From positions 1-27,488 of the forward strand of contig CAZSHQ010000001.1 in the NCBI GenBank assembly GCA_964606995.1: a DNA stretch of 27,488 bases, written 5' to 3'. Source of the stretch: an uncultured Dehalococcoidia bacterium (GTDB lineage: Bacteria > Chloroflexota > Dehalococcoidia > SM23-28-2). Of this stretch, positions 9,802 to 24,735 are shown one piece after another (positions within the stretch are counted from its first letter, which is position 1; each line of letters begins with the position of its first letter). A program made the position numbers and the translations under genes. The notes under the pieces are model-generated. The model did no database searches. It was not told where the DNA came from and saw only the letters and a program-made list of their open reading frames with translations.

Positions 9802-11135
9802 GCAGAGTGAGCGAGCGGAAGGCGACGGCTGCCCAAGAGGGCTTCAGTGGCCCTGACGGCCCCAGCCTTCAGGACATCCTGCGCTGCGTTCACTGCGGCC
9901 TCTGCCTCAACCACTGCCCCACCTACATCGAGCTAGGCCTGGAGACGGAGTCGCCCCGCGGCAGGCTCTACCTCATACGTGCGGTGAGCCAGGGGCGTAT
10001 CCCCGTCACCGAGAACGTCGTCCGTCACCTCGACCTCTGCCTGCAATGCCGCAACTGCCAGGCCGTTTGCCCTTCCGGCGTCCGCTTCGGCCAGATCATG
10101 GAAGAAGCGAGGGCCGAGATCCTGCGCGACGGCCGCCGAGCCCCCGCATCCTGGCTGGCCAGCCGCCTCGTCCTCCGACTCTTCTTCTCTCACCCCCAGC
10201 GCCTTCGCTACCTGATGACTGCCCTGGATCTCTACCAGCGTTCCGGCGTCCAGGGCCTGCTACGCCGCTCCCGTCTTCTGAGCCTTCTGCCTGGCCCCTG
10301 GCGAGGCCTGGAGCAATTGCTGCCCCGGGTTTCGGCCCGTCCCTTCACTGCTCGAGGCGTCGTCGGCAGCCCCGCAGGTGATCCGCCCAAGTTCAGGGTA
10401 GCCCTCCTATCCGGCTGCATGATGCCCTATATCTTCGCCCACGTGCACGAGGCCACCGTCCGCTTGCTGGTGCGCCACGGCTGTGAGGTAATAGTACCGC
10501 CAGAGCAGGTCTGCTGCGGCGCGCTCCACCTCCACATCGGCGACCGCCAGGAAGCCAGACGGCTCGCCCGCCGCAACATCGATGTCTTCCTCGCTGAGAA
10601 CGTCGATGCCATCATCGTCGACGTGGCCGGCTGCGGCGCAGCCATGAAGGAATACGGCGAGCTACTGAAGGACGACCCTCGCTACGCCGAGAGGGCCAAT
10701 CGCTTCAGCGCCCTGGTCAAGGATGTGAACGAATTCCTGGCAGACCTGCCCCTGAGCGATGGTCTGGGCCCCCTGCACCAGAGGGTCACCTACCAGGACC
10801 CTTGCCACCTACTCCACGCTCAAGGCATCAGTTCCCAGCCCAGGGCCCTCCTTCAGGCCATCCCCGGCCTGGAGCTGGTGGAAATGAGCCACCCAGATCA
10901 GTGTTGCGGCAGCGCCGGTCTGTACAACATCATCCACCCTCGGATGGCCCAGCGCCTGCTGCGGCGGAAGATGAGGGATGTGGCGGCCACCGGCGCCCAG
11001 GTCATCGCCACCGCCAATGCCGGCTGCGCCCTCCAACTGGAGGCCGGCCTGAGGCGCTACGGCCTGTCGGGAAGGGTCGCCCACGTGGTGGAGCTCCTAG
11101 ACGAGTCTTATCGAAAGGGCGACCGTCCAGCATAA
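9798..11135 (+). CDS. glcF: glycolate oxidase iron-sulfur subunit
   Basis: Two ferredoxin motifs (CVHCGLCLNHCP, CLQCRNCQAVCP) and two CCG domains (QVCCGA, QCCGSAG). ATGA overlap with glcE. Confidence 0.9.
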   Translation: MSRVSERKATAAQEGFSGPDGPSLQDILRCVHCGLCLNHCPTYIELGLETESPRGRLYLIRAVSQGRIPVTENVVRHLDLCLQCRNCQAVCPSGVRFGQIMEEARAEILRDGRRAPASWLASRLVLRLFFSHPQRLRYLMTALDLYQRSGVQGLLRRSRLLSLLPGPWRGLEQLLPRVSARPFTARGVVGSPAGDPPKFRVALLSGCMMPYIFAHVHEATVRLLVRHGCEVIVPPEQVCCGALHLHIGDRQEARRLARRNIDVFLAENVDAIIVDVAGCGAAMKEYGELLKDDPRYAERANRFSALVKDVNEFLADLPLSDGLGPLHQRVTYQDPCHLLHAQGISSQPRALLQAIPGLELVEMSHPDQCCGSAGLYNIIHPRMAQRLLRRKMRDVAATGAQVIATANAGCALQLEAGLRRYGLSGRVAHVVELLDESYRKGDRPA

Positions 11136-11386
11136 TTCCCAGTCGTGAGTGGAAGCCGAGGCCCAGGTCATGCTTCCGGGCTAGGCTTGATCCCAGCCGA
11201 TTCAGCAAGCCAAAGAGCCACACTACGCTTTTTCACCCTCTTTTAACCCCCCAAAGCGCCCCTATTCACCACGAAGCCGGCCCTTTGTTCGTCTTACTTA
11301 GTGAAGGAGGAATAGCAGCGATTTGCTGGGCGCTACCTCAAAGGTTGCCCAGGGTTATGGAAAGTTCCCCCTGGCAGCAGGTTTTA

Positions 11387-11415
11387 CGTAACGAGGAGCC
11401 CTCTTCTCGCGTCTG
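11387..11415 (+). promoter_or_regulatory. Putative autoregulatory ECF-sigma promoter
   Basis: CGTAAC (11387-11392), 17 nt, CGTCTG (11410-11415). The same motif occurs twice upstream of flp. Confidence 0.65.
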
Positions 11416-11565
11416 AATATGTGGCGGAACAAGTGTTAGTGAGCGTGGGCTCACACACTAGCGAATCTCCCGGGTCCCTGCCCTCCCAAGGGATTCGGAG
11501 GTAGCGACTGGGGAGATGAGTGCTGGCAAAGGCTGGCGGCGATTCACCGCCAGAGAACGGAAGGT

Positions 11566-12156
11566 ATGAACCTCCCTTTCATCGGCAGATCTTCGGCTGT
11601 AGCCGCCGACGAAAAAGAGGGGCGCGCAGAGCATGCGGCTCCCGGCCTCTCTCTGACGGACTTTTCTGCTCGCTACCGCCACTTCTACCCCAAGGTTTTT
11701 GCCTTCGTCTACGGTCGCGTCCAGGACAAAGAAGTGGCCCTGGACCTCGTCTCGGAAGTGTTTGAGAAGGCCTTTTCCAAGGGTTCCTCCCTGCGCTCCG
11801 ATGGAGCCTTTGAGGCCTGGCTATTCACCATCGCCCGCAACGCCGTAGCCAGCCACTGGCGCAAAGAGAAACCGGCAGCCAAGGCCCTGCACAGCGTCGC
11901 CTGGGAGTGGGAGCTCACACAGCATCATCGCGACCCCGAACAGACCCTCCTGGAACGTGAACAGATGGCGATCCTTGTCTATCATGTGCACCAGCTTTCC
12001 CAACGGGAGCAAGAGATCCTCTCTTTGAAGTTCGATGCTGAACTAAGCAATCAGCACATCGCCCGGGTTATGGGGACCAGCGAGGTTAACGTACGGGTTA
12101 CCCTCTACCGGGCGCTGCATAAGCTGCGAGATCGGATGAAGAGTGTGCCACAATGA
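11566..12156 (+). CDS. ECF family RNA polymerase sigma factor
   Basis: sigma2 'DLVSEVFEKAF...AWLFTIARN' and sigma4 'LSQREQEILSLKF...IARVMGTSEVNVRVTLYRAL', with no sigma3. ATGA overlap with the downstream gene. Confidence 0.92.
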   Translation: MNLPFIGRSSAVAADEKEGRAEHAAPGLSLTDFSARYRHFYPKVFAFVYGRVQDKEVALDLVSEVFEKAFSKGSSLRSDGAFEAWLFTIARNAVASHWRKEKPAAKALHSVAWEWELTQHHRDPEQTLLEREQMAILVYHVHQLSQREQEILSLKFDAELSNQHIARVMGTSEVNVRVTLYRALHKLRDRMKSVPQ

Positions 12157-13541
12157 ATGAAGACGAACGCGCCAAGAAGCTCTGCGATGCCATAGACGCC
12201 ATCCTCCAGGGCGAAGAGCCCAAGATGGAGCTGGATGACCAGGAGCTTATTGAGCTCCTGCGCATCGCCCGCTTGCGTCACCAGGCCGGTCAGGCTCTGG
12301 CCAATGTCGGTTTCACCTACCAGGAGCTGCTGCGGCGTGTCCTCCAGGCCCGTATCGTAGCCCGCCAGATGGAGGAGGGCGGTGAGAAAGCTGATGATCC
12401 GCCCCCAGAAGTGAGCAGCATTATGGACGAAGACCCAGGGCAGTTCCTCGACCCCCTGGATCCTGGCTATGGTAAGCTTGTCAACTTCCTGGACTTCCAG
12501 CCCAGGCCGGCGCACGCTGCTCCTCCCGTCCAAGCCACAGCCGTCCACACGCACCCGACCGTCGCCCGCCAGGCCCGGCCGCGAACGCTGATTCCCAGCT
12601 GGTCGCGCCGCAGCGACCGGAGCTCGAAGAAGGCGGAAACCCTTTCCGCTGCCCTCGACCGTCTCCTTTCCAGCCGAAAGCGCACCATCTCGGTGGGCGA
12701 CCCCGACATCGACGAGCTGGTCCAGGTAGCCCAACTGCGTCGGTTCGTCGGCCAAAGCCTGGCCGCCGCCGGCAGCCCTTACAAGAGACGGCTCTGGACA
12801 GTCCTGCGCATGCGCTTGGCTGCCTCTCTGCGCCGCCAGTCCTACGCTGCCCAGCGGCCCTCCGTCATCGCCGCCGTTGGCCGCTTGTCGTGGCAGCAGG
12901 CAGCAGCGGTAGCCGCTGGCATAGCCCTGTTGCTAGCTGCCCTGGGGCCCCTACCGGCCACAGGCTTCGCCGACCATCCCATAAACCACCTCCTCAACCT
13001 TGTGGAGCAACACGTGGGCGTAGAGGAGGTCGATGGGCCGCCTCCCAACGAAGTGCCCATGACGGCCACTGAGGAGCTTATCGCGCCAGAAGAAGCCGCG
13101 CATCGTTTCGGTCTTGCCGTTCGCCAGCCTTCCTATCTGCCCGAGCGTTTCCAACTGGCTCGCTCGAGCTACCATTCTCAAAGCGGCAGCACCCCCGAGC
13201 AAGGCATGCTCGTCCTCATCTACACCGTCGGTGGCACTGATCCCACAATCCTTGCCGATACAGATCCCCAACTGTTGATATACGAGGAGAGAGCGTCCTC
13301 TAACAGCGTGGCGGTGATGAATGGCCAGGCCGAGGACATAACCCTGGCAGGTCATGTGCCCGGCACCTATGCACCGGCCCTCTGGGCGATGGGGGACCAA
13401 GGGACCCTCGAGGGCACAGACGCCAGCGCTGAAAGCCTGATCTTCGACGACGACGACGTTCGGGTTATCATCACCTACAGGAACGGCGATCAAGAAAAAG
13501 AAGAACTCCTCCGCGTCGCTGAGTCGATGCTAAGCCAATAG
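12153..13541 (+). CDS. Putative anti-sigma factor: two tandem cytoplasmic helical domains, one TM helix, DUF4367-like extracytoplasmic domain
   Basis: Translationally coupled to the ECF sigma. TM at about aa 250-268. C-terminal 'EEAAHRFGLAVRQPSYLPERFQL' is DUF4367-like. Internal repeat at aa 1-68 and 159-222. Confidence 0.7.
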   Translation: MNEDERAKKLCDAIDAILQGEEPKMELDDQELIELLRIARLRHQAGQALANVGFTYQELLRRVLQARIVARQMEEGGEKADDPPPEVSSIMDEDPGQFLDPLDPGYGKLVNFLDFQPRPAHAAPPVQATAVHTHPTVARQARPRTLIPSWSRRSDRSSKKAETLSAALDRLLSSRKRTISVGDPDIDELVQVAQLRRFVGQSLAAAGSPYKRRLWTVLRMRLAASLRRQSYAAQRPSVIAAVGRLSWQQAAAVAAGIALLLAALGPLPATGFADHPINHLLNLVEQHVGVEEVDGPPPNEVPMTATEELIAPEEAAHRFGLAVRQPSYLPERFQLARSSYHSQSGSTPEQGMLVLIYTVGGTDPTILADTDPQLLIYEERASSNSVAVMNGQAEDITLAGHVPGTYAPALWAMGDQGTLEGTDASAESLIFDDDDVRVIITYRNGDQEKEELLRVAESMLSQ

Positions 13542-13645: not shown

Positions 13646-13828
13646 TTAGTCTAGGTCCTCCCGCAGCCTTCTCTCCCTCATCATCTCGTACAGTAGATTC
13701 TCCACCACCATCAGCAGCAAAAGGACCGCCCGCTGCTGCCGCCGCGGCAGACGAGCCAAGAACTGCAACAGATCAGCGTCCACCTTCTCGGCCAGAGCAA
13801 CGCGGTTCTCACCGGTGTTGGCCATCAC
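13646..13828 (-). CDS. Small protein homologous to the C-terminal domain of the adjacent XRE regulator (SinI-like)
   Basis: 20/31 ungapped identity to the XRE C-terminus (VDADLLQFLARLPRRQQRAVLLLL vs VDPDLLRFLARLPRNRQRRLLLLL). Starts 2 nt after the XRE stop. Start is GTG 13828 or ATG 13825. Confidence 0.8.
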   Translation of the reverse strand: MMANTGENRVALAEKVDADLLQFLARLPRRQQRAVLLLLMVVENLLYEMMRERRLREDLD

Positions 13829-13830
13829 CC

Positions 13831-14250
13831 CTAATCCCGCCGGCTGGACAACCTGGAATCCTGGCTAGCCGATCCCTCTCCCTCTCCCCCTCCCCGCGTG
13901 TCCTCCACCAGGTGCTCCATGCCCTCCAGCAAGAGGAGCAAACGCCGTTGCCGGTTACGAGGCAGGCGGGCCAGGAAGCGCAGAAGATCCGGGTCCACGT
14001 TGGCCTCATAGCCCTCGTAGACCTGCTTCAGAGTGCGCACCGTCGGGTAGCCAGCGGCCTCGAACAGATCGTCGGCGTCCACGTGTATGGCCTGAGCAAC
14101 CCTAAGGATGACGGCGGCACTGGGATTCCGCACGTCCCCGTTCTCCAACTGAGATAGGTAACCCTGGCTGACAGCAGCCTCACCGGCTAGCTGCCCCTGA
14201 GTAAAACCTATCTCCTCGCGTAGTTCCCGAATCCTTTTGCCTAGCTCCAT
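13831..14250 (-). CDS. XRE/SinR-like helix-turn-helix transcriptional regulator (xre1)
   Basis: 'LGKRIRELRE.G.TQ.QLA..A.VSQGYLSQLE....NPS' HTH_3 pattern plus a C-terminal helical domain. Confidence 0.9.
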   Translation of the reverse strand: MELGKRIRELREEIGFTQGQLAGEAAVSQGYLSQLENGDVRNPSAAVILRVAQAIHVDADDLFEAAGYPTVRTLKQVYEGYEANVDPDLLRFLARLPRNRQRRLLLLLEGMEHLVEDTRGGGEGEGSASQDSRLSSRRD

Positions 14251-14316: not shown

Positions 14317-14345
14317 TTGACAGTAACTCAATATTGATATATTAA
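14317..14345 (+). promoter_or_regulatory. Rightward sigma70-type promoter with palindromic spacer
   Basis: TTGACA (14317-14322) followed by AT-rich TG-a-TATATT/TATTAA (14335-14345). Perfect palindrome TCAATATTGA (14328-14337) lies in the spacer. Confidence 0.6.
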
Positions 14346-14425
14346 TAGGTTGGTTTAGAAGTTCCTTTCAAGAACGGTCTACACCATATACTCGGTAATC
14401 TTGTCCAAAGGAGGTGGTTGAGAGG

Positions 14426-14635
14426 GTGAACAACAAAGCTGACAAGCTCTGCCGCGCCATCGATGACCTTCTCCTGCCTCATCCTCGCAAGACCTTGGTG
14501 GTAGAGCCTGAGGCTCAAGAGTTGCTCCGGCTGGCCCACCTCCGCCGTGAGGCCGGCCGCAGGATTGCTGCCATAGGCGCCTCTCGGCTGGAGAAAAGCT
14601 GGCAACAGCTGGAAGCAACTCTGCGGGTCCGATAG
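14426..14635 (+). CDS. Small stand-alone copy of the anti-sigma cytoplasmic domain
   Basis: SD AAGGAGGTG precedes GTG 14426. Ungapped identity is 24/63 to repeat 1 and 23/63 to repeat 2 of the 12153 protein. Confidence 0.78.
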   Translation: MNNKADKLCRAIDDLLLPHPRKTLVVEPEAQELLRLAHLRREAGRRIAAIGASRLEKSWQQLEATLRVR

Positions 14636-14679: not shown

Positions 14680-15036
14680 ATGAAGATCTGGCGAACGCCG
14701 CTCCTGCTCCTAGTAGCAGCCATTGCCCTCCTGGCGATCGCCGGCGGAGCGCTCCTGCTCCAGTCTTCGGACGAGGCCGAGGCGAAAATCGTCTCCGGCG
14801 ACTCCCTGTCTTGCAGCGCAGTGAGCCCTTCAGGCGACGCGCTTGTCGTCGCTCCTGACTCAGCCGGAACATCTCTGACAACCACTGATACTGCCGCCTC
14901 CTCAGCCCAGTGCTACTTTGCCGGCATTACCAGGTTCCCGAACGGTTGCGGTAGCCAGGACCTCTATGTCTTGAGATACCTGTGCTACGATCCAGCCAAA
15001 GACTGGTTCTACGTAAACTACATGTACTGCATGTAG
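14680..15036 (+). CDS. Small exported Cys/aromatic-rich hypothetical protein
   Basis: Perfect SD AAGGAGGTG. N-terminal MK plus hydrophobic stretch, then A-E-A. Cys at positions 45, 78, 90, 102 and 117. Confidence 0.7.
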   Translation: MKIWRTPLLLLVAAIALLAIAGGALLLQSSDEAEAKIVSGDSLSCSAVSPSGDALVVAPDSAGTSLTTTDTAASSAQCYFAGITRFPNGCGSQDLYVLRYLCYDPAKDWFYVNYMYCM

Positions 15037-15060: not shown

Positions 15061-15090
15061 GGACGGCGGCGCCAGTTCCTGCCGCCGTCC
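15061..15090. terminator. Hairpin between convergent genes (likely bidirectional terminator)
   Basis: GGACGGCGGC (15061-15070) / GCCGCCGTCC (15081-15090), a perfect 10-bp stem. Confidence 0.6.
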
Positions 15091-15458
15091 TACTCTTTCC
15101 CTCCTTGACAATCGTCTTCCACTGCCAGCCGATCGCCCACAGTAGTCTCCGAGCGTGCGGCTGTGCCCGCCGCCACCTCCAGGGCATCCCGGGCCCCCCG
15201 GCCGCCCAAGGCCACCCGAAAGGGCCCGAGCGCCGGCGCCACCTTCACCACCTTGGCCTCCCCATCCAGAAAGATCACATCGATCGGAAAGCGCATAAGG
15301 AAGGTCTGCACCGACGAGCAGGGCGAAAGTAGCAGACCCTCCCCTTCCTTCAGACCGTGGCGCCCCATAAGGCCAACGAGCCGCGCCCAAAAGCTTTCCG
15401 CCTTCCGCGCATGCCCAGCCACGGTCGTTCCCTTGCTGACGTTTACAATCCTGGCCAC
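15090..15458 (-). CDS. DUF192 family protein
   Basis: 'AESFWARLVGLMGR...EGEGLLL.PC.SVQTFLMRFPIDVIFLD...LEV.AG' matches the DUF192 pattern. Last gene of the tad operon. Confidence 0.85.
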   Translation of the reverse strand: MARIVNVSKGTTVAGHARKAESFWARLVGLMGRHGLKEGEGLLLSPCSSVQTFLMRFPIDVIFLDGEAKVVKVAPALGPFRVALGGRGARDALEVAAGTAARSETTVGDRLAVEDDCQGGKE

Positions 15459-15473
15459 AGTGGAGATACGATA

Positions 15474-15845
15474 TCACTGGCTTGGCAGAGCGTCCAGCCG
15501 CTGCCCCATGCTCTCCAGCAGGAGCAGTATGTAGCGCTGCTGCTCCTGCGACAGGCCAGCCAAGAATCTTAGCAGGTCAGGGTCAACCCTAGCCTGGTAG
15601 TTGCTGTTGGCTTTGCTAAGGCCCCTGACCGGCGTATAGCCAGCCGCGTCCAGCAGCTCATGGGGATCCACATACAGGGCGCTCGCCAGGCGCAATAGGA
15701 TGGCGGCGCTAGGATTCTTAACTTCTTCCCTCTCCAACTGGCAGAGGTAGCCCTGGCTCACCTCCGCGCAACCGGCCAGTCGGGCCTGGCTTAGGCCCAT
15801 CTGCTCCCGCAGTTCGCGAATTCGTCTGCCTAGCCTCATCTCCAC
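15474..15845 (-). CDS. XRE/SinR-like transcriptional regulator (xre2), paralog of xre1
   Basis: Same HTH ('VSQGYLCQLE...NPSAA') and the same C-terminal 'VDPDLLRFLA' domain. Starts 17 nt after the tadC stop. Confidence 0.88.
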   Translation of the reverse strand: MEMRLGRRIRELREQMGLSQARLAGCAEVSQGYLCQLEREEVKNPSAAILLRLASALYVDPHELLDAAGYTPVRGLSKANSNYQARVDPDLLRFLAGLSQEQQRYILLLLESMGQRLDALPSQ

Positions 15846-15862
15846 GTCCCTCTGGCCCCCTA

Positions 15863-16765
15863 CTACAGCAGTTGCTCTCCTATCCGGATAACAGCCGGGC
15901 CCAAGATCACCAGCATAAAGGCAGGAAAGATGCAGATGACCAGTGGAAACATCATCTTGATCGGGGCTTCGTGCGCCAACTGCTCCGCCCGCTGCCGTCG
16001 ATGCGTCCGCATCTGGTCCGACTGCACCTTCAGCACATGGCCGATGCTCACCCCTAGCTGTTCGGCCTGGATGATGGCGTTGACAAAGGAGATGAGCTCT
16101 GGCACCCCCGTGCGCTGGCCCAGGTCGCTCAAGGCCTCCCGCCGCAAGCGCCCCATGCCCACCTCTCGCAGCGTCTGCGAAAGCTCCTTGGCCAGAGGAC
16201 CCTTCATCTGCTCACCGATCTTGGCCAGGGCAGCGTCCAGACCCAGCCCCGCCTCGACGCAGGTAGTGATTAGGTCCAGGGCATCGGGCAGGGTCTTGAT
16301 GATCAACCGCTGCCTCGACCGCACCGTTGTCCTCAGCCAGAACAAGGGCAGACTGAAGCCGATGATAGCCATCACCATCAGGCCCAGAAATCCCTGAGTG
16401 CTGATTCCCCCCAGAGTGGCAAGGGCAACGATAGTCAGCCCGGCGAAGAAAGCGATACAGACGGCCCAAAAGGTAACGAAGGTAGTAGCCGTCATAGAAC
16501 TGCCAGCCATGACGAGCGATTTCTGGATGCTAGCTAGGAAGTTGACCGGCAGCATTCCTGCCAGACCCTTACCGAAACCCTGAATAGTGGGGCGCAGTAT
16601 CCTATCGCTGAAGGGCAGGACCAGCTCCGACACGTCGCCGGCGGCCACCTGCCGTCGCAGCGTCTCCATGCGCATCTCCGTCACGCTCGTCCGCGGCCTC
16701 ACAAGGCCCAGCACCAGGAAGGCCACGGCAGCGAAAACGACGAAGGCGATCATCAGTGCAAACAT
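15863..16765 (-). CDS. tadC: Tad pilus inner-membrane platform protein (T2SS F family)
   Basis: 'LPDALDLITTCVEAGLGLDAAL', 'GVSIGHVL..QSDQMR..RRQRAEQLA.EAPIKMMFPL'. Confidence 0.9.
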   Translation of the reverse strand: MFALMIAFVVFAAVAFLVLGLVRPRTSVTEMRMETLRRQVAAGDVSELVLPFSDRILRPTIQGFGKGLAGMLPVNFLASIQKSLVMAGSSMTATTFVTFWAVCIAFFAGLTIVALATLGGISTQGFLGLMVMAIIGFSLPLFWLRTTVRSRQRLIIKTLPDALDLITTCVEAGLGLDAALAKIGEQMKGPLAKELSQTLREVGMGRLRREALSDLGQRTGVPELISFVNAIIQAEQLGVSIGHVLKVQSDQMRTHRRQRAEQLAHEAPIKMMFPLVICIFPAFMLVILGPAVIRIGEQLL

Positions 16766-16771
16766 CTGCTG

Positions 16772-17746
16772 CTACACCTCAATACTCATCATAGAGCGAA
16801 TCAGAAAGATACCCATGACCTCCAGCCCCCCTGCTATGAGGAGCAAGACCTTGCCGACAGTTTCAGTAAATAGAGGGGCCATGTAATCGGGGTTCATGGC
16901 GAACATGATCAGGCCCACGAAGATAGGCAGCGCGCCGATGACAACCCCCGTCATGCGCTGTTGAGCGGTGAGGGTCTTGATCTCTCCCCGAATGCGGTCC
17001 CGTTCCCTTATGGTGTAAGCCACGTTGTCCAGCGTCTGGGCCAGATTGCCCCCGACCGACCTCTGAATAGCGACGGCGGTAACAACCATCTCCATGTCGG
17101 GGCTAGCGATGCGATCAGCCAGAGCCTGGATAGCGACCTCAGCCCCGGCACCCAGGTTCGCATCCTGGAGCATGCGCTTGAGCTCATCCGCCAGCGGTGG
17201 CGATATCTGACGGCTGGCGTATTCGAAACCCTGCAGCAATCCATACCCCGATTTCAGGGAGTTGGAGACCAGGGTGAGCATCTCCTCCAGTTGACCGTTG
17301 ATCTTGGCCTGGCGGCTGCGCCGCCGACGACCCACGTACCAGCGGGGCAAGAAGTAGCCAATCGGAGCCGCCGGCAAAGCGATGAGCCAGTTGCGCGTCA
17401 GCAGGAGAGTCAGCAGAAGGAGAAGCATAGCCACGGCAACCCTGAGGGTCATGTATTCGCCTACCCGCAAGGGAATGCCCGCCCGTTCCAGCGCCAGGAC
17501 TGAGCTCTCCACTTGGCGGCTGCCACCCAGAATGCCAGCGAGGGGGCCCAGCTTGCCGCGATCGGTAGGACGCAACAGCGACTCATCACCGACGCCGCTG
17601 GGGCGACTCGTCTCGCCCCGACTAAGCTCCTCCAGGCGGCGGCTAAGTGCCCCCTGCCCAGAGCCCCGAATCTGAGAAATGCCAATGACAAGCAGCGTTA
17701 CAGTGGCCATCACGGCCACGGCTACTAGAAGCGCCAGCGGTTGCAT
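16772..17746 (-). CDS. tadB: Tad pilus inner-membrane platform protein (T2SS F family)
   Basis: 'LVSNSLKSGYGLLQG', 'IQRSVGGNLAQTLDNVAYTIRER..IRGEIKTLTAQQRMT'. Confidence 0.9.
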   Translation of the reverse strand: MQPLALLVAVAVMATVTLLVIGISQIRGSGQGALSRRLEELSRGETSRPSGVGDESLLRPTDRGKLGPLAGILGGSRQVESSVLALERAGIPLRVGEYMTLRVAVAMLLLLLTLLLTRNWLIALPAAPIGYFLPRWYVGRRRRSRQAKINGQLEEMLTLVSNSLKSGYGLLQGFEYASRQISPPLADELKRMLQDANLGAGAEVAIQALADRIASPDMEMVVTAVAIQRSVGGNLAQTLDNVAYTIRERDRIRGEIKTLTAQQRMTGVVIGALPIFVGLIMFAMNPDYMAPLFTETVGKVLLLIAGGLEVMGIFLIRSMMSIEV

Positions 17747-17750
17747 CGGC

Positions 17751-19130
17751 CTACCACTCCGCTACGTTCTGAAACAAGCCCTCAGGCACAGCAATGCCGG
17801 CCAGGGCGAAGCCTTCGGCGAAGGTAGGACGGATGCCCGTGGACTGCAGCCGCCCCAAAATACGGCCGTGCTCATCGATGCCCTCCTGCTCAAAGCGGAA
17901 GATGTCCTGGAGAGTGACAATCTCCCCCTCCATGCCGCTCACCTCAGTGATGTGGGTTATGCGGCGGCCGCCGTCGCGGAAGCGCGCTATCTGAAGAACA
18001 AGGTGAAGGGCCGACGACATCTGCTCACGGATGGCCCGCATTGGCAGGTCCAGATTGGCCATTAGCACCATGTTCTCCAGCCTGGCCAGAGCATCGCGAG
18101 GCGAGTTAGAGTGAATGGTGCTGAGGGAGCCCTCGTGGCCGGTGTTCATGGCATTGAGCATGTCGAACGCCTCGCCGCCACGCACCTCACCGATGAGGAT
18201 ACGGTCGGGCCGCATGCGCAGGGTGTTGCGCAACAGCTCCCGCTGGGTCACCTCCCCCCGGCCATCCACGTTGGGGGGGCGAGCCTCCAGGCTGATGACG
18301 TGCGGCTGCTGAAGCTGGAGCTCCAGAGGGTCCTCGATGGTCACAATGCGCTCGGAATCGGGAATGAAGGCAGACACGGCGTTGAGAAGGGTCGTCTTGC
18401 CGGTGCCTGTGCCGCCGGAGACCAGGGCATTCAAACGAAGCTCCACACAAGCCCCCAAGAACTGGCCTATTTCGGCGCTGAGGGTGCCCACCTTCACCAG
18501 GTCATCCATGGTCAACTTGCTTCTAAGGAACTTGCGGATGGTCATGGTGGGGCTCTTGGGGGCCAAGGGAGGGATAATAACGTTCACGCGCGAGCCATCG
18601 GCCAGGCGGGCATCCACCATGGGAGAGCTCTCGTCGACGCGCCGCCCCAGGGGAGCGATGATCCGCTCCACAATCTGCATGACATGGTCCACATCGCGAA
18701 AGCGAACGTCGCTCTGATACATGATGCCATCCCGCTCGAAGTACACCTCCTCGGGCGAGTTCACCATCACCTCAGAGATAGACGAGTCGTGCAGCAAGGG
18801 CTCGATGGGTCCCAGACCCACCACCTCATCCACCACCCGGGTGGCCACGGCATCCCGCACCAGGGCGTTCAGAGACTCCCGCCCCAGCAGGGCCTTTACT
18901 GCCTCCTCCACCGCCTGACGCCGCTTGTCAGGAGGCATCGCCTCCAACTTCTCGGCTTCCAGCTCATCGATGAGCCTCTGATGGAAGCGATAGACCAGTT
19001 GCTCTAGTTCCTCCCCCAAACGAGCCGAGCGGCGGGCCGGCGCTGCCACCTGAGAACTAGACTTACCTGGTGGCTGGTCACCGTCATTCTGCTCTGGAAG
19101 TCGTTCAGTTCGCCGGCGCCACTGACTCAT
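17751..19130 (-). CDS. cpaF: Tad pilus assembly ATPase CpaF/TadA
   Basis: Walker A '[12 protein letters not shown]', 'TIEDPLEL', '[18 protein letters not shown]', '[12 protein letters not shown]'. SD AAGGAG. Confidence 0.95.
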
Positions 19131-19142
19131 CTTTCTCCTTCC

Positions 19143-20447
19143 TTATCTGGTCCATTCCTCTGCCGCCGGTGTCGCGGGTACCTCCGACACCGCCTCGGCA
19201 GCCCCTTCCGCGGCGACCCCTGGCTCGGCCTGCGGCTCGCCCTGTGGCCTTCCCAGCAGAGGGATGCGGTCGCCCAGGCGCTCCAGCATGCCCTTGGGCC
19301 GGGAGCGGATGCCGCCAATGGCGTAGGACAGCTCCACAAGGCTCTGAGAGGCTTTGGACTTGGGCTTGGCCGCCACTATGGGCATACCCAACTGCGTGGT
19401 CTGGGAGATGCTACGATCGTAGGGGATTGTCCAGAAGATCTCCTTGCCCAGAACCCGTCGAATATCGACCCGTGTGTCGCGGTGGGCATCGCTGGTGTGG
19501 TTGATCACTATCTTCACCTTCTCCGACGGGAAGGACCAGGAGCGAAGCATCTCCAGGGCCAGGATGGTATCCTTCAGGCTGGCCAGATCGGGAGTGGCTA
19601 TCAGCAGAAGAATGGTGCACATCTCCAGAGCACGAGACACGATGTCGTTGAAGGCACCGGGTGTGTCCAGAAGGACGTAATCGTGGGTGGTGGCCAGGAC
19701 CGACACCATCTTCTCGATGTGGCCGGGGTGGATGCTGTGCCATTCGGATGGCCGAATGGGCGCCGGCAAGATGGCCACGCCAGTGCCATGCGTGTACAGG
19801 CAGGACTGGACGGCCTCGCGATCGATCTCCTCGTCCGGTAGAGCCAGGTCAGAGATGCTGCGGTCGGTGGGCATGTCCATGAGGATGGCCACGTCGCCAA
19901 AGCGGGTGTCCAGGTCCACCAGGGCCACCGATTGGCCCGTCTTCTGCACCAGGGCAGTAGCCAGATTGGTAGCGATGGTAGTCTTGCCGATCCCTCCTTT
20001 GGCCCCGAAGATGGTAACCACCGTCCCGTAGGCCTGGGCCTCCACCTCCCCTGCCAAGCGCTGCTGGCGCCTCTCTTCCTGAGCAAGAGCAGCGTGGATG
20101 GAGCGACCCAGATCCTCCTCCTGCAGAGGAGCGACGAGGTAGTCCTTGACCCCCACCTGCATGGCGCGCCGGATGTAACTAGGGTCGCCGATTGATGAGT
20201 AGGCGATGATCGGCACCTGGGGGAGAACGTCGCCCACTGACTCGAGGGTCTGCAGGGAGCGAGCTATAGGCTCCTCCAGGGCCACCACCACCACCTCAGG
20301 CGTCGTCTCGCGGGCCAGGGTCATGGCCTCCATCCCGTAGCCGGCAGCGCCCATCACAGCGAAGCCTGACAGGGCCAGCATTCGCTGGGTTTCCGCCCGG
20401 CTGGACGGATCCTGGTCGATTATGATTACCTTGGGGTTCCTAGCCAC
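19143..20447 (-). CDS. cpaE: CpaE/TadZ: receiver-like domain plus ParA/MinD ATPase
   Basis: N-terminal REC fold, deviant Walker A 'GAKGGIGKTTIA', 'VDLDTRFGDV'. SD GAGGAGG precedes a GTG start. Confidence 0.88.
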   Translation of the reverse strand: MARNPKVIIIDQDPSSRAETQRMLALSGFAVMGAAGYGMEAMTLARETTPEVVVVALEEPIARSLQTLESVGDVLPQVPIIAYSSIGDPSYIRRAMQVGVKDYLVAPLQEEDLGRSIHAALAQEERRQQRLAGEVEAQAYGTVVTIFGAKGGIGKTTIATNLATALVQKTGQSVALVDLDTRFGDVAILMDMPTDRSISDLALPDEEIDREAVQSCLYTHGTGVAILPAPIRPSEWHSIHPGHIEKMVSVLATTHDYVLLDTPGAFNDIVSRALEMCTILLLIATPDLASLKDTILALEMLRSWSFPSEKVKIVINHTSDAHRDTRVDIRRVLGKEIFWTIPYDRSISQTTQLGMPIVAAKPKSKASQSLVELSYAIGGIRSRPKGMLERLGDRIPLLGRPQGEPQAEPGVAAEGAAEAVSEVPATPAAEEWTR

Positions 20448-20465
20448 CTAAGGCCTCCTCCCGCA

Positions 20466-21341
20466 TTAACGTCCGAAAGGATTGGGAAGGTTAGAAGGCA
20501 AGATCTCAGGGTTGACAATGGCTGGCACCGTTGACTCGTCCGTTTCTCCCACCGGCCGCAACGACAGTTTGAGAACGCCCATCTCCTCCGCCAGGGCCAG
20601 CTTCTGAGCCTCCGCGGGTGTCACTGCCAGGGTCACGTTGGTGGCATCGGGATTGGGGTCGGCGGGATTGGGGAGAACGGGCTGAGATCCCTCACCGGTC
20701 GTGCCGTCGTCGCCCTCCTCAGGCAAGGCCTCAGCCACCTCCTGGGCCACTGCCAGCACCTGCACGTTCTGCAAGACAGTGACCGCCACGTAATCATCAA
20801 AGTCCTCCGAGGACGTGGGGTCGTCCTCCTTGATCCCGTAGAACGTAACATCGAAAACGCCGATGACATCCACGAAGTCCCCGGGCAGGATCAGGCCACC
20901 GGCGCCCGTGACCTCACTCACCTGCACGGACACCGCTCGCTGGTCGGGCGGCACCACATAAGAAAGGGGCAATTCCTCGTCACCCGCCCCCGGCACCTCC
21001 CTGGCGGTTGCCGCCACCTTGCTGCTCAGAATCTGTTCCTCGGCAGCGATAGGCAGACGAGTGACCATGCCAATCAACTGATCAGTGGATGAAAAGGCAT
21101 CCGGATGCACTGCGCTCTCTGCCAGGGACTTCACTTCCACCATTTCAGCCGTGATGCGCACACGAGCGGACATGTCCTCCGTGGCGACCACCACTGGCTT
21201 GGTGGCCGCGGCGCTCGCCTCCCCGTCACCCCCACCCTGGCTGAGGTAGACGTAGACCAGCACCGCGCTAACAAGGCCCAAGAAAAGGGCCACTAATAAG
21301 ACCGCTTTGTTGCTCCTGCCGCCCCCAACGCGATTTCGCAT
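20466..21341 (-). CDS. cpaB: Flp pilus assembly protein CpaB/RcpC
   Basis: N-terminal TM, SAF domain 'VVVATED....RIT.EMV', 'RAVSVQVSEVTGAGGLILPGDFVDV', 'VLQNVQVLAV', 'VTLAVTPAEAQKL'. Start set at ATG 21341. Confidence 0.9.
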   Translation of the reverse strand: MRNRVGGGRSNKAVLLVALFLGLVSAVLVYVYLSQGGGDGEASAAATKPVVVATEDMSARVRITAEMVEVKSLAESAVHPDAFSSTDQLIGMVTRLPIAAEEQILSSKVAATAREVPGAGDEELPLSYVVPPDQRAVSVQVSEVTGAGGLILPGDFVDVIGVFDVTFYGIKEDDPTSSEDFDDYVAVTVLQNVQVLAVAQEVAEALPEEGDDGTTGEGSQPVLPNPADPNPDATNVTLAVTPAEAQKLALAEEMGVLKLSLRPVGETDESTVPAIVNPEILPSNLPNPFGR

Positions 21342-21447
21342 CACAGGTTCCCCCTCATGCCCGCAGCTCTGCCGGCCAGGCAAGCTGCTAACGGGCGCGG
21401 GCCTTCTTCTGCCCGCCCCCTACCTCGAACGTTCGCTCACGACCCGG

Positions 21448-22716
21448 TCATGGGTTCAGCGTCGGCACCAGACGGATGCCGGTCACGAGCTCCCAGCCTA
21501 TCGTTTCGAAAACCGGAGTCAGGTCCCCTCCCTCGGGCTCTTCGAAGTAGTGGTACTCGTCGGTGGCCATGGCCTGCAGGACATCCCGCGCCGGGGCGTC
21601 CTCCCACTCACCGCTGTCGCACCCGCACAGACTTCCGGGTCCCGGATCTTCCACGCCATAGCCAATCGTGTATACCTCGATCCCCAGAGCCTTGGCGTCT
21701 TCCGCCATTTCGACGGCGTGCTCGCAGGGGTTGTAGCTGTCGGGCTCGGGGCCGCACTGACCGTTCTGGCCATCCTCTGGCTGGTTGGCCGCTCCGTCGG
21801 AGAGGAAGATTATCCCCCAGTGCTCGTCGGGCCTGCCGTTGGTCTGCAACTCCTCGGCGGCGGCCCACATCGGATCGCCTAGGTCCGTGCCCACCTGGGA
21901 CGTTTTCAGGCAGCTAATGTTGGCCACCAGCGAGCTGCTCTCGTCCGGCGAGCCGTCGGGGTTCTGATAGTCATCGCTCAGATGGGTGGTCACCCAGCGC
22001 GACTCCGGCAGGTTCGGATAGGGCAGCGGCGGGTTGCACTGCCAACCCCCCGGCCACGACCACCAGCACTTGTGCGGTTCGCCCCAGCAGTCGCTCGAGC
22101 TCTTGGCCGGGCCCAGGGCCGCCAGGCCTACCCGCTGCCACTCCTCGGAGAACACTCCCAGGATGGCCTTAGCCGCGTTCTTGGCGTTCGTCATGTCGCT
22201 GCCGCTCATGCTCTGCGTCCGGTCGAGCACCATCATCACATCCAGCGCCCGGAAAGGAGCGGCGCCACACAGACCACGGCAGCCAGCGGCGGTGGCCGAA
22301 ACCGTGACGTCGTCCAGGCCCAGAAGCGGTGCGAAATTCAGGGGGACGTTGCGCTCAGCGTGAACGACGATGGTATCCCACCTGTCCGCCGACGAGTCGC
22401 AGGCGATCTCGTATTCACTGGTGCAGGTGAAGCTTATGTCCACGCTGTCCCCATCGGTTACATCGACCTCGTTCTTATCGAGCCACTCGTGAGCGTCTGC
22501 CTCAGCCTCGGTCCACGAGTCAGGCAATTTCTGGGCAGCCGCTAGAGCAGCGGCGTCAACAGCCTTCTGGAGCTCGCGCTTCTCATGCATGAACATCCCT
22601 ACGTCCAGCACCAGCGCCGCGAAGCCCAGGATCACTATCATGGCCAGGGTCCCCAGCACCAGGCCTTGACCGAACTCCTGTCGCCAGAGGGAACGCAGTA
22701 GCCTCAATAGCCTCAC
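21448..22716 (-). CDS. tadG: TadG-like pseudopilin with von Willebrand A domain
   Basis: Prepilin-like 'G/QGLVL...AALVLDVG...ELQKAVDAAALAAA' and vWA 'LDVMMVLDRTQSM...GTDLG...IIFLSDG'. Start is GTG 22716 (SD GGAG) or GTG 22725 (overlapping the tadE stop). Confidence 0.8.
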   Translation of the reverse strand: MRLLRLLRSLWRQEFGQGLVLGTLAMIVILGFAALVLDVGMFMHEKRELQKAVDAAALAAAQKLPDSWTEAEADAHEWLDKNEVDVTDGDSVDISFTCTSEYEIACDSSADRWDTIVVHAERNVPLNFAPLLGLDDVTVSATAAGCRGLCGAAPFRALDVMMVLDRTQSMSGSDMTNAKNAAKAILGVFSEEWQRVGLAALGPAKSSSDCWGEPHKCWWSWPGGWQCNPPLPYPNLPESRWVTTHLSDDYQNPDGSPDESSSLVANISCLKTSQVGTDLGDPMWAAAEELQTNGRPDEHWGIIFLSDGAANQPEDGQNGQCGPEPDSYNPCEHAVEMAEDAKALGIEVYTIGYGVEDPGPGSLCGCDSGEWEDAPARDVLQAMATDEYHYFEEPEGGDLTPVFETIGWELVTGIRLVPTLNP

Positions 22717-22721
22717 GCTAC

Positions 22722-23192
22722 TCACTCCAATCGAAAGTCAGCAGTAGAACTCAGGGTGAAGGACTCGCCAACAGTGCCGCCGCTGACCACGCCGACGATG
22801 CCAGCCAGAGGAGTGATCAGTGAGTAATCGTAGCTCACGTCCACCACCACCGACTCCCCCGGCAGACCTTCGGCATTGGTAACAGTGACCTCCAGGTCGT
22901 CCCCTAACGCGCCTGCCGTGTCGCGCACTTTCCCCTCGATGCACTGGTCGAGCGAGCCCTGCCCATAGCAGGGAGAGCCCACCGCGTCAAGGGCAGGATG
23001 CACAGCCCCCAGACGGCCGCCTTCACGCGCCGAGTTGGTGACTGTAATCCAGGCATGGAAAGCCATGCCAAAATCGACAATTGCACAAAGCACTAGAAGG
23101 AAGATGGGCAACACAAGGGCAAACTCCACCAGCGACTGTCCACCTTCCCCCTTGCCTCTGCGTCTGGTGATGCGCTTAAGGATAGCTAGCAT
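22722..23192 (-). CDS. tadE: TadE-like minor pseudopilin
   Basis: 'G/QSLVEFALVLPIFLLVLCAIVDFG...NSAREGGR' TadE signature. Confidence 0.9.
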   Translation of the reverse strand: MLAILKRITRRRGKGEGGQSLVEFALVLPIFLLVLCAIVDFGMAFHAWITVTNSAREGGRLGAVHPALDAVGSPCYGQGSLDQCIEGKVRDTAGALGDDLEVTVTNAEGLPGESVVVDVSYDYSLITPLAGIVGVVSGGTVGESFTLSSTADFRLE

Positions 23193-23218: not shown

Positions 23219-23298
23219 GCAGGAGCGTCGCGGCTCAACCCGAGCGCCTGACGGCACATCTGCCTTGGTTAGCCCTCGTTGGACCGCGACACCCCTGC
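23219..23298 (-). other. Intercistronic RNA stem-loop between flp and tadE
   Basis: 15-bp stem (plus 23219-23233 with 23284-23298). Its two imperfect positions are G-U pairs only on the transcribed minus strand. Confidence 0.6.
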
Positions 23299-23321: not shown

Positions 23322-23510
23322 CTAGCCTCCGAGAGCGGCCGCTATCTCGTCCAGGAAGCCAGCAATGGCCAAACCGATGATCCCCAAAGCACCCATGCAT
23401 ACCACGGCAATGAGGGCCATGATCAGGCCGTACTCGGTTAGGGCCTGCCCCGACTCCGAGCGGAAGCGGGTTACCAGCCCCACGAAAAACTCGCTGATCT
23501 TGCTTAGCAT
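23322..23510 (-). CDS. flp: Flp family type IVb/c major pilin
   Basis: 62 aa with 'G/QALTEYGLIMALIAVV' (E+5, Y+6 Flp motif). SD GGAGG upstream. Confidence 0.92.
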   Translation of the reverse strand: MLSKISEFFVGLVTRFRSESGQALTEYGLIMALIAVVCMGALGIIGLAIAGFLDEIAAALGG

Positions 23511-23570
23511 CGTTCGTTTGTACCTCCATTAGGCTCCTGCTTTTAGCTGCGGGATAGCTTGCAGGTTCAC

Positions 23571-23687
23571 CTAGGTTGTGATAAGAAAGAAGAGACGTCG
23601 GGCCCCGCGCACTCCGGCGTCCGGGGTGGGGATTTGCGGTCCTGCCAGGCCAGCTCTCCTCACCCCGTCCGTGTTTGTTTTTCTCAT
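23571..23687 (-). CDS. Candidate 38-aa upstream ORF in the flp leader (MRKTNTDGVRRAGLAGPQIPTPDAGVRGARRLFFLITT)
   Basis: ATG 23687 to TAG 23571. Perfect SD TAAGGAGGTG (23703-23712) is 15 nt away, an unusually long spacing; an in-frame ATC lies closer. Confidence 0.3.
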   Translation of the reverse strand: MRKTNTDGVRRAGLAGPQIPTPDAGVRGARRLFFLITT

Positions 23688-23765
23688 TCGCCTCTCGATA
23701 TCCACCTCCTTATCTCAGCAATAGCGACAAGCTAGGCTTATCGCCCATCTAGCCTACCTGAAGGT

Positions 23766-23793
23766 TAGACGCCTGAAACAGGATGTTGTTACA
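23766..23793 (-). promoter_or_regulatory. ECF-type promoter P1 of the flp/tad operon
   Basis: On minus: TGTAAC, 16 nt, CGTCTA. Confidence 0.7.
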
Positions 23794-23838
23794 GTTATGT
23801 CCACTTGCCTCCCAAATCCCTCTCGCCTTTCACTTCAA

Positions 23839-23867
23839 TAGACGTATGACACCGCCCTACCGTTACC
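23839..23867 (-). promoter_or_regulatory. ECF-type promoter P2 of the flp/tad operon
   Basis: On minus: GGTAAC, 17 nt, CGTCTA. Confidence 0.62.
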
Positions 23868-24000
23868 TCTCACGCACGAGAGCTCGCGTGTGGCCGCGCC
23901 GTTGCCTCTGCAGGCCCAATGCGCTACCCTGCCTACCAGTGAGCAGACCTACCTTTAGTGAACCAACCCTAACCCTCACCAGGAATCGAAGGGAATCGCC

Positions 24001-24735
24001 ATGCCGATCGTCGCCGCCCTCCTCGGCCTCATAACCGGCCACATACTGGAAGTGCTCCTGGACCGTTTCTACTCCGACGCGCCTCCCGGAGGCCCTCTCG
24101 TCCGCTGCTCGGCCTGCCGTTCCCCTATCCGCCTCCTTCACCTCCTCCCCCTGCTAGGCTACCTCTGGCATCGTGGCCGCTGTCCCGACTGCGACCAGCG
24201 ATTGCCCATTCGCGTCCTCCTCCTGCCGCCGGCCAGCGCCCTCGTGTTCGCCCTTACCGCCCTGGCCAGCGACCAGTGGGGCCCAACGATCCTGGGCGGC
24301 CTGTTCGCCGCTATCTTCCTGGCCCTGATGACCACAGACCTGGAGCGCCGCCTCATCCCCAATCGCATCGTCTACCCCGCCATGCTCCTGGCCATCGCTG
24401 TGTCCTGCGCCTGGCCCGACCGGGGCATAGGACAAACCCTCGCCGGCGGCGGCCTGGCCTTCGCCATCATGCTCATCGTCTACATCGTCTCCCTCGGCCG
24501 CTTCGGCTTCGGCGATGTGAAGATGGCCACTCTCATGGGCTTCGCCGTGGGCTTCCCTGCCGTGACGGTGGGCCTCTTCTTCACGGCCATCAGCGCCGGC
24601 CTGGCAGCCGCGCTCCTGTTGCTCACAGGGGTCATGCGGCGAGGCCAGTACATTCCTTATGGCCCCTTTATCGCCCTGGGAGCCATCATCTCCCTCCTCT
24701 GGGGCGACACCATCATCGACTGGTACACGGGCTAG
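24001..24735 (+). CDS. A24 family prepilin peptidase with N-terminal Zn-binding domain
   Basis: 'RCSAC...GRCPDC' N-domain. Catalytic aspartates in 'TTDLERRLIPN' and 'GFGDVKM'. C-terminal 'IPYGPFIALG'. Confidence 0.9.
   Translation: MPIVAALLGLITGHILEVLLDRFYSDAPPGGPLVRCSACRSPIRLLHLLPLLGYLWHRGRCPDCDQRLPIRVLLLPPASALVFALTALASDQWGPTILGGLFAAIFLALMTTDLERRLIPNRIVYPAMLLAIAVSCAWPDRGIGQTLAGGGLAFAIMLIVYIVSLGRFGFGDVKMATLMGFAVGFPAVTVGLFFTAISAGLAAALLLLTGVMRRGQYIPYGPFIALGAIISLLWGDTIIDWYTG

Follow-up and report, generated by a model that had tools for sequence, protein, structure and literature searches.

A promoter-like motif shared by an ECF sigma factor gene and the Tad pilus operon is conserved in an uncultured lineage of Dehalococcoidia

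In an uncultured Dehalococcoidia bacterium, the gene for an ECF sigma factor and the flp/tad pilus operon are preceded by copies of one bipartite motif, GTAAC-N16/17-CGTCT, identified in a 27,488-nt stretch of DNA (hereafter the window). The sigma factor probably transcribes both its own gene and the flp/tad operon, and a dedicated envelope-signalling sigma factor is most likely what turns on the adhesive pili in this lineage. Adhesion, biofilm formation and surface sensing are functions of Tad/Flp pili, for which the regulators known so far are response regulators, cell-cycle factors and c-di-GMP. The idea that an ECF sigma factor drives the Tad operon came from a sequence-only reading of the window, and was supported by every computational test run.

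The copy of the motif upstream of the sigma gene, P_sigma (CGTAAC-N17-CGTCTG, 11387-11415, + strand), has its -35 element GTAAC at 11388-11392 and its -10 element CGTCT at 11410-11414, and is located in the gap between a GlcF-like gene, whose stop is at 11135, and the sigma gene, which starts at 11566. Transcription is predicted to start near 11421, giving a sigma leader of ~145 nt. Two further copies are located between the start of flp (23510) and the start of the divergent prepilin peptidase gene (24001), namely the distal P_flp1 (GGTAAC-N17-CGTCTA, 23867-23839, - strand), with a predicted start near 23833, and the proximal P_flp2 (TGTAAC-N16-CGTCTA, 23793-23766, - strand), with a predicted start near 23760 and a flp leader of ~250 nt. 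All three sites are intergenic, and each is oriented towards its downstream gene. Direct reading and an exhaustive scan upheld what the sequence-only reading had reported of their coordinates, intergenic position and orientation.

The scan, covering both strands of the 27.5-kb window, found exactly these three sites for GTAAC-N16/17-CGTCT, compared with 0.03 expected, and none of 100 dinucleotide shuffles reached three; the earlier estimate of about 0.1 chance matches per window was conservative. A looser search (N15-18 with CGTC) returned the same three sites only, with 0.30 expected. GTAAC itself occurs 19 times in the window and is accompanied by CGTC at promoter distance in three of these, which bears out the earlier remark that the other copies lack a -10 element. 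Further regulon members in the window were sought through the variants TAAC, C[GA]TC, NGTC and G[GT]AAC, which led to sites at 20845 (coding) and 5722, neither of them conserved, and the GTAAC at 14323, considered as a fourth site, belongs to a sigma-70-like promoter of two small ORFs (14414 and 14680, described below). By rough arithmetic, and for a motif chosen post hoc, two regions of ~450 nt are expected to have ~0.8 bipartite 5+5 words in common; the occurrence of one copy in one region and two in the other has, on the same rough basis, a probability of roughly 4e-4. Because of the post hoc choice of motif and the ~0.8 shared words expected, it is conservation, and not the count in the window, that is decisive.

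Conservation was assessed in about 100 related loci, gathered by scanning a genome collection with TadZ and metagenomes with an alignment of TadE, and by looking up homologues of the sigma factor, of TadE and of the partner protein encoded next to the sigma gene. In 99 related sequences (760 kb), 119 exact matches to the motif were found, all 119 of them preceding flp/tad genes or the sigma gene, with no exact match elsewhere in these 760 kb. P_sigma occurs in all 13 relatives for which the region is available (sigma protein identity 59-100%), with GTAAC and (G)CGTCTG fixed and the spacers variable. The order of the locus, in which glycolate-oxidase-like genes, the sigma gene and the partner gene are convergent with the tad operon, is preserved in all loci reaching far enough, down to 59% identity for the sigma factor and 31-51% for the partner. 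In a motif-blind alignment of the 430 nt upstream of the flp start, comprising 48 distinct sequences, both GTAAC and CGTCT of P_flp2 are 100% conserved, compared with 60% for the spacer and 74% for the region as a whole. Among loci with at least ~700 nt upstream of tadE, the motif is found on the flp strand in all except one (L054), which has a run of N within its upstream sequence. The flp promoter is not covered in the lineage with 59% sigma identity (L012) or in L099 and L100, where the 10-kb flank ends short of flp. Other tad genes, too, are preceded by copies of the motif, at a distance of 93 nt for cpaB (L009) and of 134 nt for tadE (L047/L049), and these represent independent placements in two lineages. 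On the strength of these comparative data, involving both conservation and exclusive placement, the motif is a real element.

The arrangement of the flp promoters differs between clades. P_flp2 is the promoter retained in both the clade of the window (the near clade) and the S clade (TadE ~62-65% identical), while P_flp1 is present in the window's clade, recurs as CGTAAC-N16-CGTCTT in the clade of L017 and L018, and is missing from the S clade. The most distant clade (L017, L018, L047, L051 and L055) has CATCT instead of CGTCT as its proximal -10 element, and its flp promoter lies ~110 nt upstream of flp. P_flp1 is broken in L016 (9320-9365) by a 6-bp tandem duplication (CCAGTGCCAGTGCC), resulting in a spacer of 23 bp and a -10 element of CGTCG; the proximal promoter of this locus is intact. 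The tandem promoters proposed in the sequence-only reading thus apply to only part of the lineage, and not to the S clade, which has the proximal promoter only, nor to L016, in which the distal one is broken.

Several conserved blocks are found close to these promoters. The block GGACATAAC (23794-23802, - strand) adjoins the -35 element of P_flp2 and is nearly invariant in the 48 sequences, and its GACATAA portion is retained in the most distant clade too; it may represent an extended -35/UP-like element or an activator site. Upstream of P_sigma, at 11354-11365, is the conserved GTTATGGAAAGT, which includes the reverse complement of CATAAC, and GGACATAAC and GTTATGGAAAGT could be sites for a second regulator. 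Further conserved blocks, TTTTCACC...TTTTAACCCC and TTCGTCTTAC, occupy 11232-11290 (+ strand), 100-150 nt upstream of P_sigma, the second of them reading TCGTAACAT in other clades.

From its gene content, the locus downstream of P_flp1 and P_flp2 is assigned as a Tad/Flp (type IVc) pilus locus with a full monoderm-type component set. The flp gene (23322-23510, - strand) encodes a prepilin of 62 aa, which matches Pfam Flp_Fap with an E-value of 3.4e-5 and 24.0 bits, below the cut-off of 32.2, and contains the processing motif G/QALTEY in its translation. The remainder of the operon (15090-23192, - strand), which has an identical gene order in relatives, contains tadE (22722-23192), tadG/VWA (21448-22725), cpaB (20466-21383), the receiver-TadZ gene REC-tadZ (19143-20447) and cpaF (17751-19130), all assigned through Pfam; tadB (16772-17746) and tadC (15863-16765), assigned through their translations and T2SSF matches on the syntenic genes of relatives; and genes for an XRE regulator (15474-15845, NCBIfam) and a DUF192 protein (15090-15458, NCBIfam, with a DUF192 match on the syntenic gene of relatives). 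The divergent prepilin peptidase (24001-24735, + strand) belongs to the A24 family (Pfam Peptidase_A24 and A24_N_bact). No secretin is encoded in the tad locus of the window, as expected for a monoderm-type system. In all, the flp/tad operon comprises 11 genes and is convergent with the sigma-partner gene pair. A GC-rich inverted repeat (GTCGCGG...CCGCGAC, 23225-23295, - strand) is located between flp and tadE, with larger hairpins at this position in relatives, and is probably an attenuator or stabiliser that sets how much pilin is made relative to the machinery. In or beside the tad operon are the genes of two paralogous HTH regulators of the XRE family (13831-14250 and 15474-15845, - strand), which have the C-terminal motif DPDLLRFLA in common, and the former gene is followed by a conserved ORF of 59-60 aa (13646-13828).

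The sigma gene (11566-12156, + strand) encodes a protein of 196 aa containing the Pfam domains Sigma70_r2 (E 9e-15) and Sigma70_r4_2 (E 2e-9). Its score of 82.6 bits against the sigma70-ECF model TIGR02937 exceeds the cut-off of 42.9, and on these profile matches it is assigned to the ECF (group IV) sigma-70 factors. None of the curated ECF subfamily cut-offs of NCBIfam is reached: the best subfamily is that of BldN (TIGR02952), with 116.2 bits, below the cut-off of 206.45, and the ShbA model (NF007230) gives 55.7 bits, below the cut-off of 209. On these scores the protein is assigned to neither the BldN (TIGR02952/ECF121) nor the ECF40 (SigD/ShbA) group. Its best match in the PDB is 6dxo_A (E 5e-14). 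The main text of the ECF re-classification paper mentions neither pili nor Chloroflexi.

We infer that the motif is a promoter, and that the adjacent sigma factor, not a paralogue, reads it. The sequence-only reading likened the AAC/CGTC pattern to the SigX/SigM-type ECF promoters of B. subtilis. A GTAAC -35 element with a CG-initial -10 element is documented for ECF sigma factors, GTAAC-N17-18-CGAT and CGTAAC-N16-CGATGA being experimentally established promoters of ECF40 SigD/ShbA (PMC12019637). For the protein itself, BldN is the nearest relative. About half of ECF sigma factors autoregulate, in keeping with the earlier statement that ECF autoregulation is common, and a motif before the sigma factor's own gene is its usual sign (PMC7776599). 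The promoter-like properties of the motif, the ECF40 precedent and the presence of the motif before the sigma gene together argue for autoregulation and for transcription of flp/tad by the same sigma factor. Alternatively, the sites could be genuine ECF promoters read by another ECF sigma factor encoded elsewhere, with the adjacent sigma factor being itself a target or sharing the sites. Many ECF groups share AAC/CGT-type motifs, the specificities of related sigma factors can overlap (for example SigD and SigH in Corynebacterium), and the genome is covered for ~27 kb only; however, the motif precedes the sigma factor's own gene, the sigma/partner pair adjoins the tad operon in all relatives reaching far enough, and no second sigma gene is present in the locus, either in the window or in syntenic relatives, making a different reader unlikely.

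The interpretation of the two half-sites as a -35/-10 pair recognised by a sigma factor is based on their asymmetry, the free spacer of 16-17 bp between them, their orientation towards the gene, and the finding of no sigma-70-like promoter in either intergenic region (upstream of sigma or upstream of flp). The presence in the locus of two XRE-family HTH proteins, and of the conserved flanking blocks GGACATAAC at P_flp2 and GTTATGGAAAGT upstream of P_sigma, would fit a transcription-factor site, bound by an XRE regulator or by receiver-TadZ, in place of a promoter. Such a site is very unlikely given that the half-sites are unrelated to each other and form neither a palindrome nor a direct repeat, and that an element with a free spacer always faces the gene where no other promoter is detectable.

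The sigma gene is followed, with an ATGA overlap at its stop, by a gene for a putative membrane anti-sigma factor/sensor of 462 aa (12153-13541, + strand). Hydropathy indicates a single transmembrane helix at ~249-273, separating a cytoplasmic N-terminal part, which contains two helical repeats, from an extracytoplasmic, beta-rich C-domain. The protein has no sequence match in Pfam, NCBIfam or the PDB (E up to 10 for the PDB), and its N-terminal part contains no known anti-sigma domain. In an AlphaFold (AF2) model built on 40 homologues, the C-domain is the sole confident region (residues ~300-462, pLDDT ~70-91, with one block at 66), while pLDDT is below 50 across most of residues 45-286. The best fold matches of the modelled C-domain are to E. 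coli RseB (E 0.015, probability 1.0), and 29 of the 40 homologues show a weak match to DUF4367. An identity for the cytoplasmic part was sought by sequence and by fold, with no matches and with low pLDDT in the model. We infer from gene adjacency and from this predicted layout that the partner is the anti-sigma factor of the adjacent sigma factor, and it may represent a new class of anti-sigma factor. Downstream of the pair, an ORF of 73 aa (14414-14635, + strand) shows 37-40% identity to each of the cytoplasmic repeats of the partner and is followed by a gene for a 118-aa protein with an N-terminal hydrophobic segment (14680-15036, + strand); homologues in relatives are genes of 69 aa and 111-118 aa. 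Both ORFs are preceded by a sigma-70-like promoter, TTGACA (14317-14322)-N17-TATTAA. Their products could function as an anti-anti-sigma factor or decoy, and the free 73-aa protein could compete for the sigma factor in a partner-switch.

The module can be compared with several characterised systems. As in the RpoE-RseA-RseB type, a two-domain sigma factor is predicted to be co-transcribed with a single-pass membrane partner, the sigma factor's own promoter and the target operon share an AAC...CGT motif, and the outer domain of the partner is RseB/LolA-like in its predicted fold. The differences are that RseB is a separate periplasmic protein, whereas here the RseB-like domain forms part of the membrane protein itself; that the window's partner contains two helical repeats in place of a recognisable anti-sigma domain; and that the target is a pilus operon and not envelope-repair genes. 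Streptomyces BldN/RsbN (6DXO; ECF121) provides the closest solved relative of the window sigma factor as well as its best NCBIfam subfamily. BldN controls genes for surface fibres, the chaplins and rodlins (PMC6101532), and the window sigma factor likewise appears to control a surface-fibre gene, that of the Flp pilin; RsbN, like the window's partner, is a single-pass membrane protein unlike known anti-sigma factors. By contrast, the window sigma factor scores 116 bits against the BldN cut-off of 206 and comes from another phylum with other target genes, and the partner does not resemble RsbN in sequence (no PDB match, E up to 10) and has a much longer cytoplasmic part. ECF40 SigD (Mycobacterium, Corynebacterium) and ShbA (Streptomyces) share the -35 element GTAAC and a spacing of 16-18 bp with the present motif, but differ in their -10 element, CGAT(GA) instead of CGTCT, and in their targets, which are cell-wall genes or hrdB. 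An influence of an ECF sigma factor on the expression of Flp pilin and tad genes is also known from P. aeruginosa SigX: flp is down 17-fold in a sigX mutant, an effect on flp/tad attributed to lower expression of PprB, a response regulator that is a direct activator of flp (PMC3832394). There, no ECF promoter is described before flp, whereas here ECF-type promoters are located directly upstream, an arrangement for which no report was found in the literature.

Both transcripts would carry long conserved leaders (~145 nt for sigma and ~250 nt for flp), which point to further control after initiation. In the sigma leader, a hairpin identified by alignment (CTGGCGG-N7-CCGCCAG, 11533-11553, + strand) is located shortly before the ribosome-binding site. 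L100 has CCGACGG/CCGTCGG in its place, amounting to two compensatory pairs, and other relatives pair via G-U wobble, with wobble changes in L007. The flp 5' leader contains a 74-nt core (CGGGGTG...CCCGACGTC, 23594-23667, - strand), which is almost invariant (CGGGGTGAGGAGAGCTGGCCTGGCAGGACCGCAAATCCCCACCCCGGACGCCGGAGTGCGCGGGGCCCGACGTC) in 43 distinct copies from two clades in which TadE is only ~62-100% identical, compared with a divergence of 10-40% in its flanks and in the coding genes. CACCCCG has two alternative pairing partners, an upstream and a downstream CGGGGTG. The core is a candidate cis-regulatory RNA or operator, and may constitute a new class of cis-regulatory RNA (riboswitch or protein-binding leader), gating pilin synthesis after initiation. 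Because of this near-invariant element in the 250-nt leader, promoter activity alone may not decide pilin output.

Other identities were considered for the leader core. Rfam 15 gave no match at gathering score in the window, and a search of 23400-24050 returned two chance-level hits only (E about 7). With no Rfam match at E up to 10 for the core, no identity such as a c-di-GMP riboswitch was found. A small ORF is incompatible with the loss of start codon and frame in L002, L003 and L076, and an unusually stable structure with an MFE z-score of only -1.3. No compensatory pairs occur among the 43 variants, whose variation is too low to test covariation, and the most distant clade lacks the core. 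It is conceivable, if rather doubtful, that the locus contains two undescribed regulatory parts, an RNA class in the flp leader and a class of anti-sigma factor, beyond the link from ECF sigma factor to pilus.

The core also raises the question of whether P_flp2 mainly drives a separate small RNA, corresponding to the leader element, with flp itself transcribed from a nearer promoter. The conservation of the core far above that of its surroundings would suit a small RNA, as would a weak hairpin and T-rich tract after it, which have a terminator-like score in the window. Nevertheless, no promoter-like site is present between the element and flp, the T-rich tract is lost in the S clade, and the most distant clade has its promoter ~110 nt before flp without the element, leaving the small RNA highly improbable. 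That the three matches are a chance coincidence, a concern raised by a motif picked after viewing and by one shared 5+5 word between two intergenic regions being not unusual, can be dismissed in view of the three sites found against 0.03 expected, the location of all 119 matches in related DNA at positions that are orthologous or linked to tad, and the invariant hexamers around variable spacers.

In the favoured reading, where the adjacent sigma factor transcribes its own gene and the flp/tad operon, the translationally coupled membrane partner would hold the sigma factor inactive in the resting state. A putative envelope or surface signal would be sensed by the RseB/LolA-like outer domain and lead to release of the sigma factor. 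The sigma-RNA polymerase complex would then recognise GTAAC (-35) and CGTCT (-10), 16-17 bp apart, with initiation near 11421 at P_sigma providing positive feedback, and initiation near 23760 at P_flp2 and, in the window's lineage, near 23833 at P_flp1 leading to production of pilin and assembly machinery, on which the long conserved leaders would impose later control.

The module is compact, with one sigma factor, one putative anti-sigma factor and three promoters whose hexamers are fixed, and can for this reason be tested directly in a heterologous host, an important point for organisms that resist cultivation. Separately, the near-invariant flp leader offers RNA biology a lead of its own. 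If confirmed, the link described here would provide a function and a minimal regulon for a family of sigma/anti-sigma pairs throughout one uncultured, sediment-dwelling lineage of Dehalococcoidia, and would indicate that these monoderm Chloroflexota deploy their pili on receiving a signal from the envelope or a surface.
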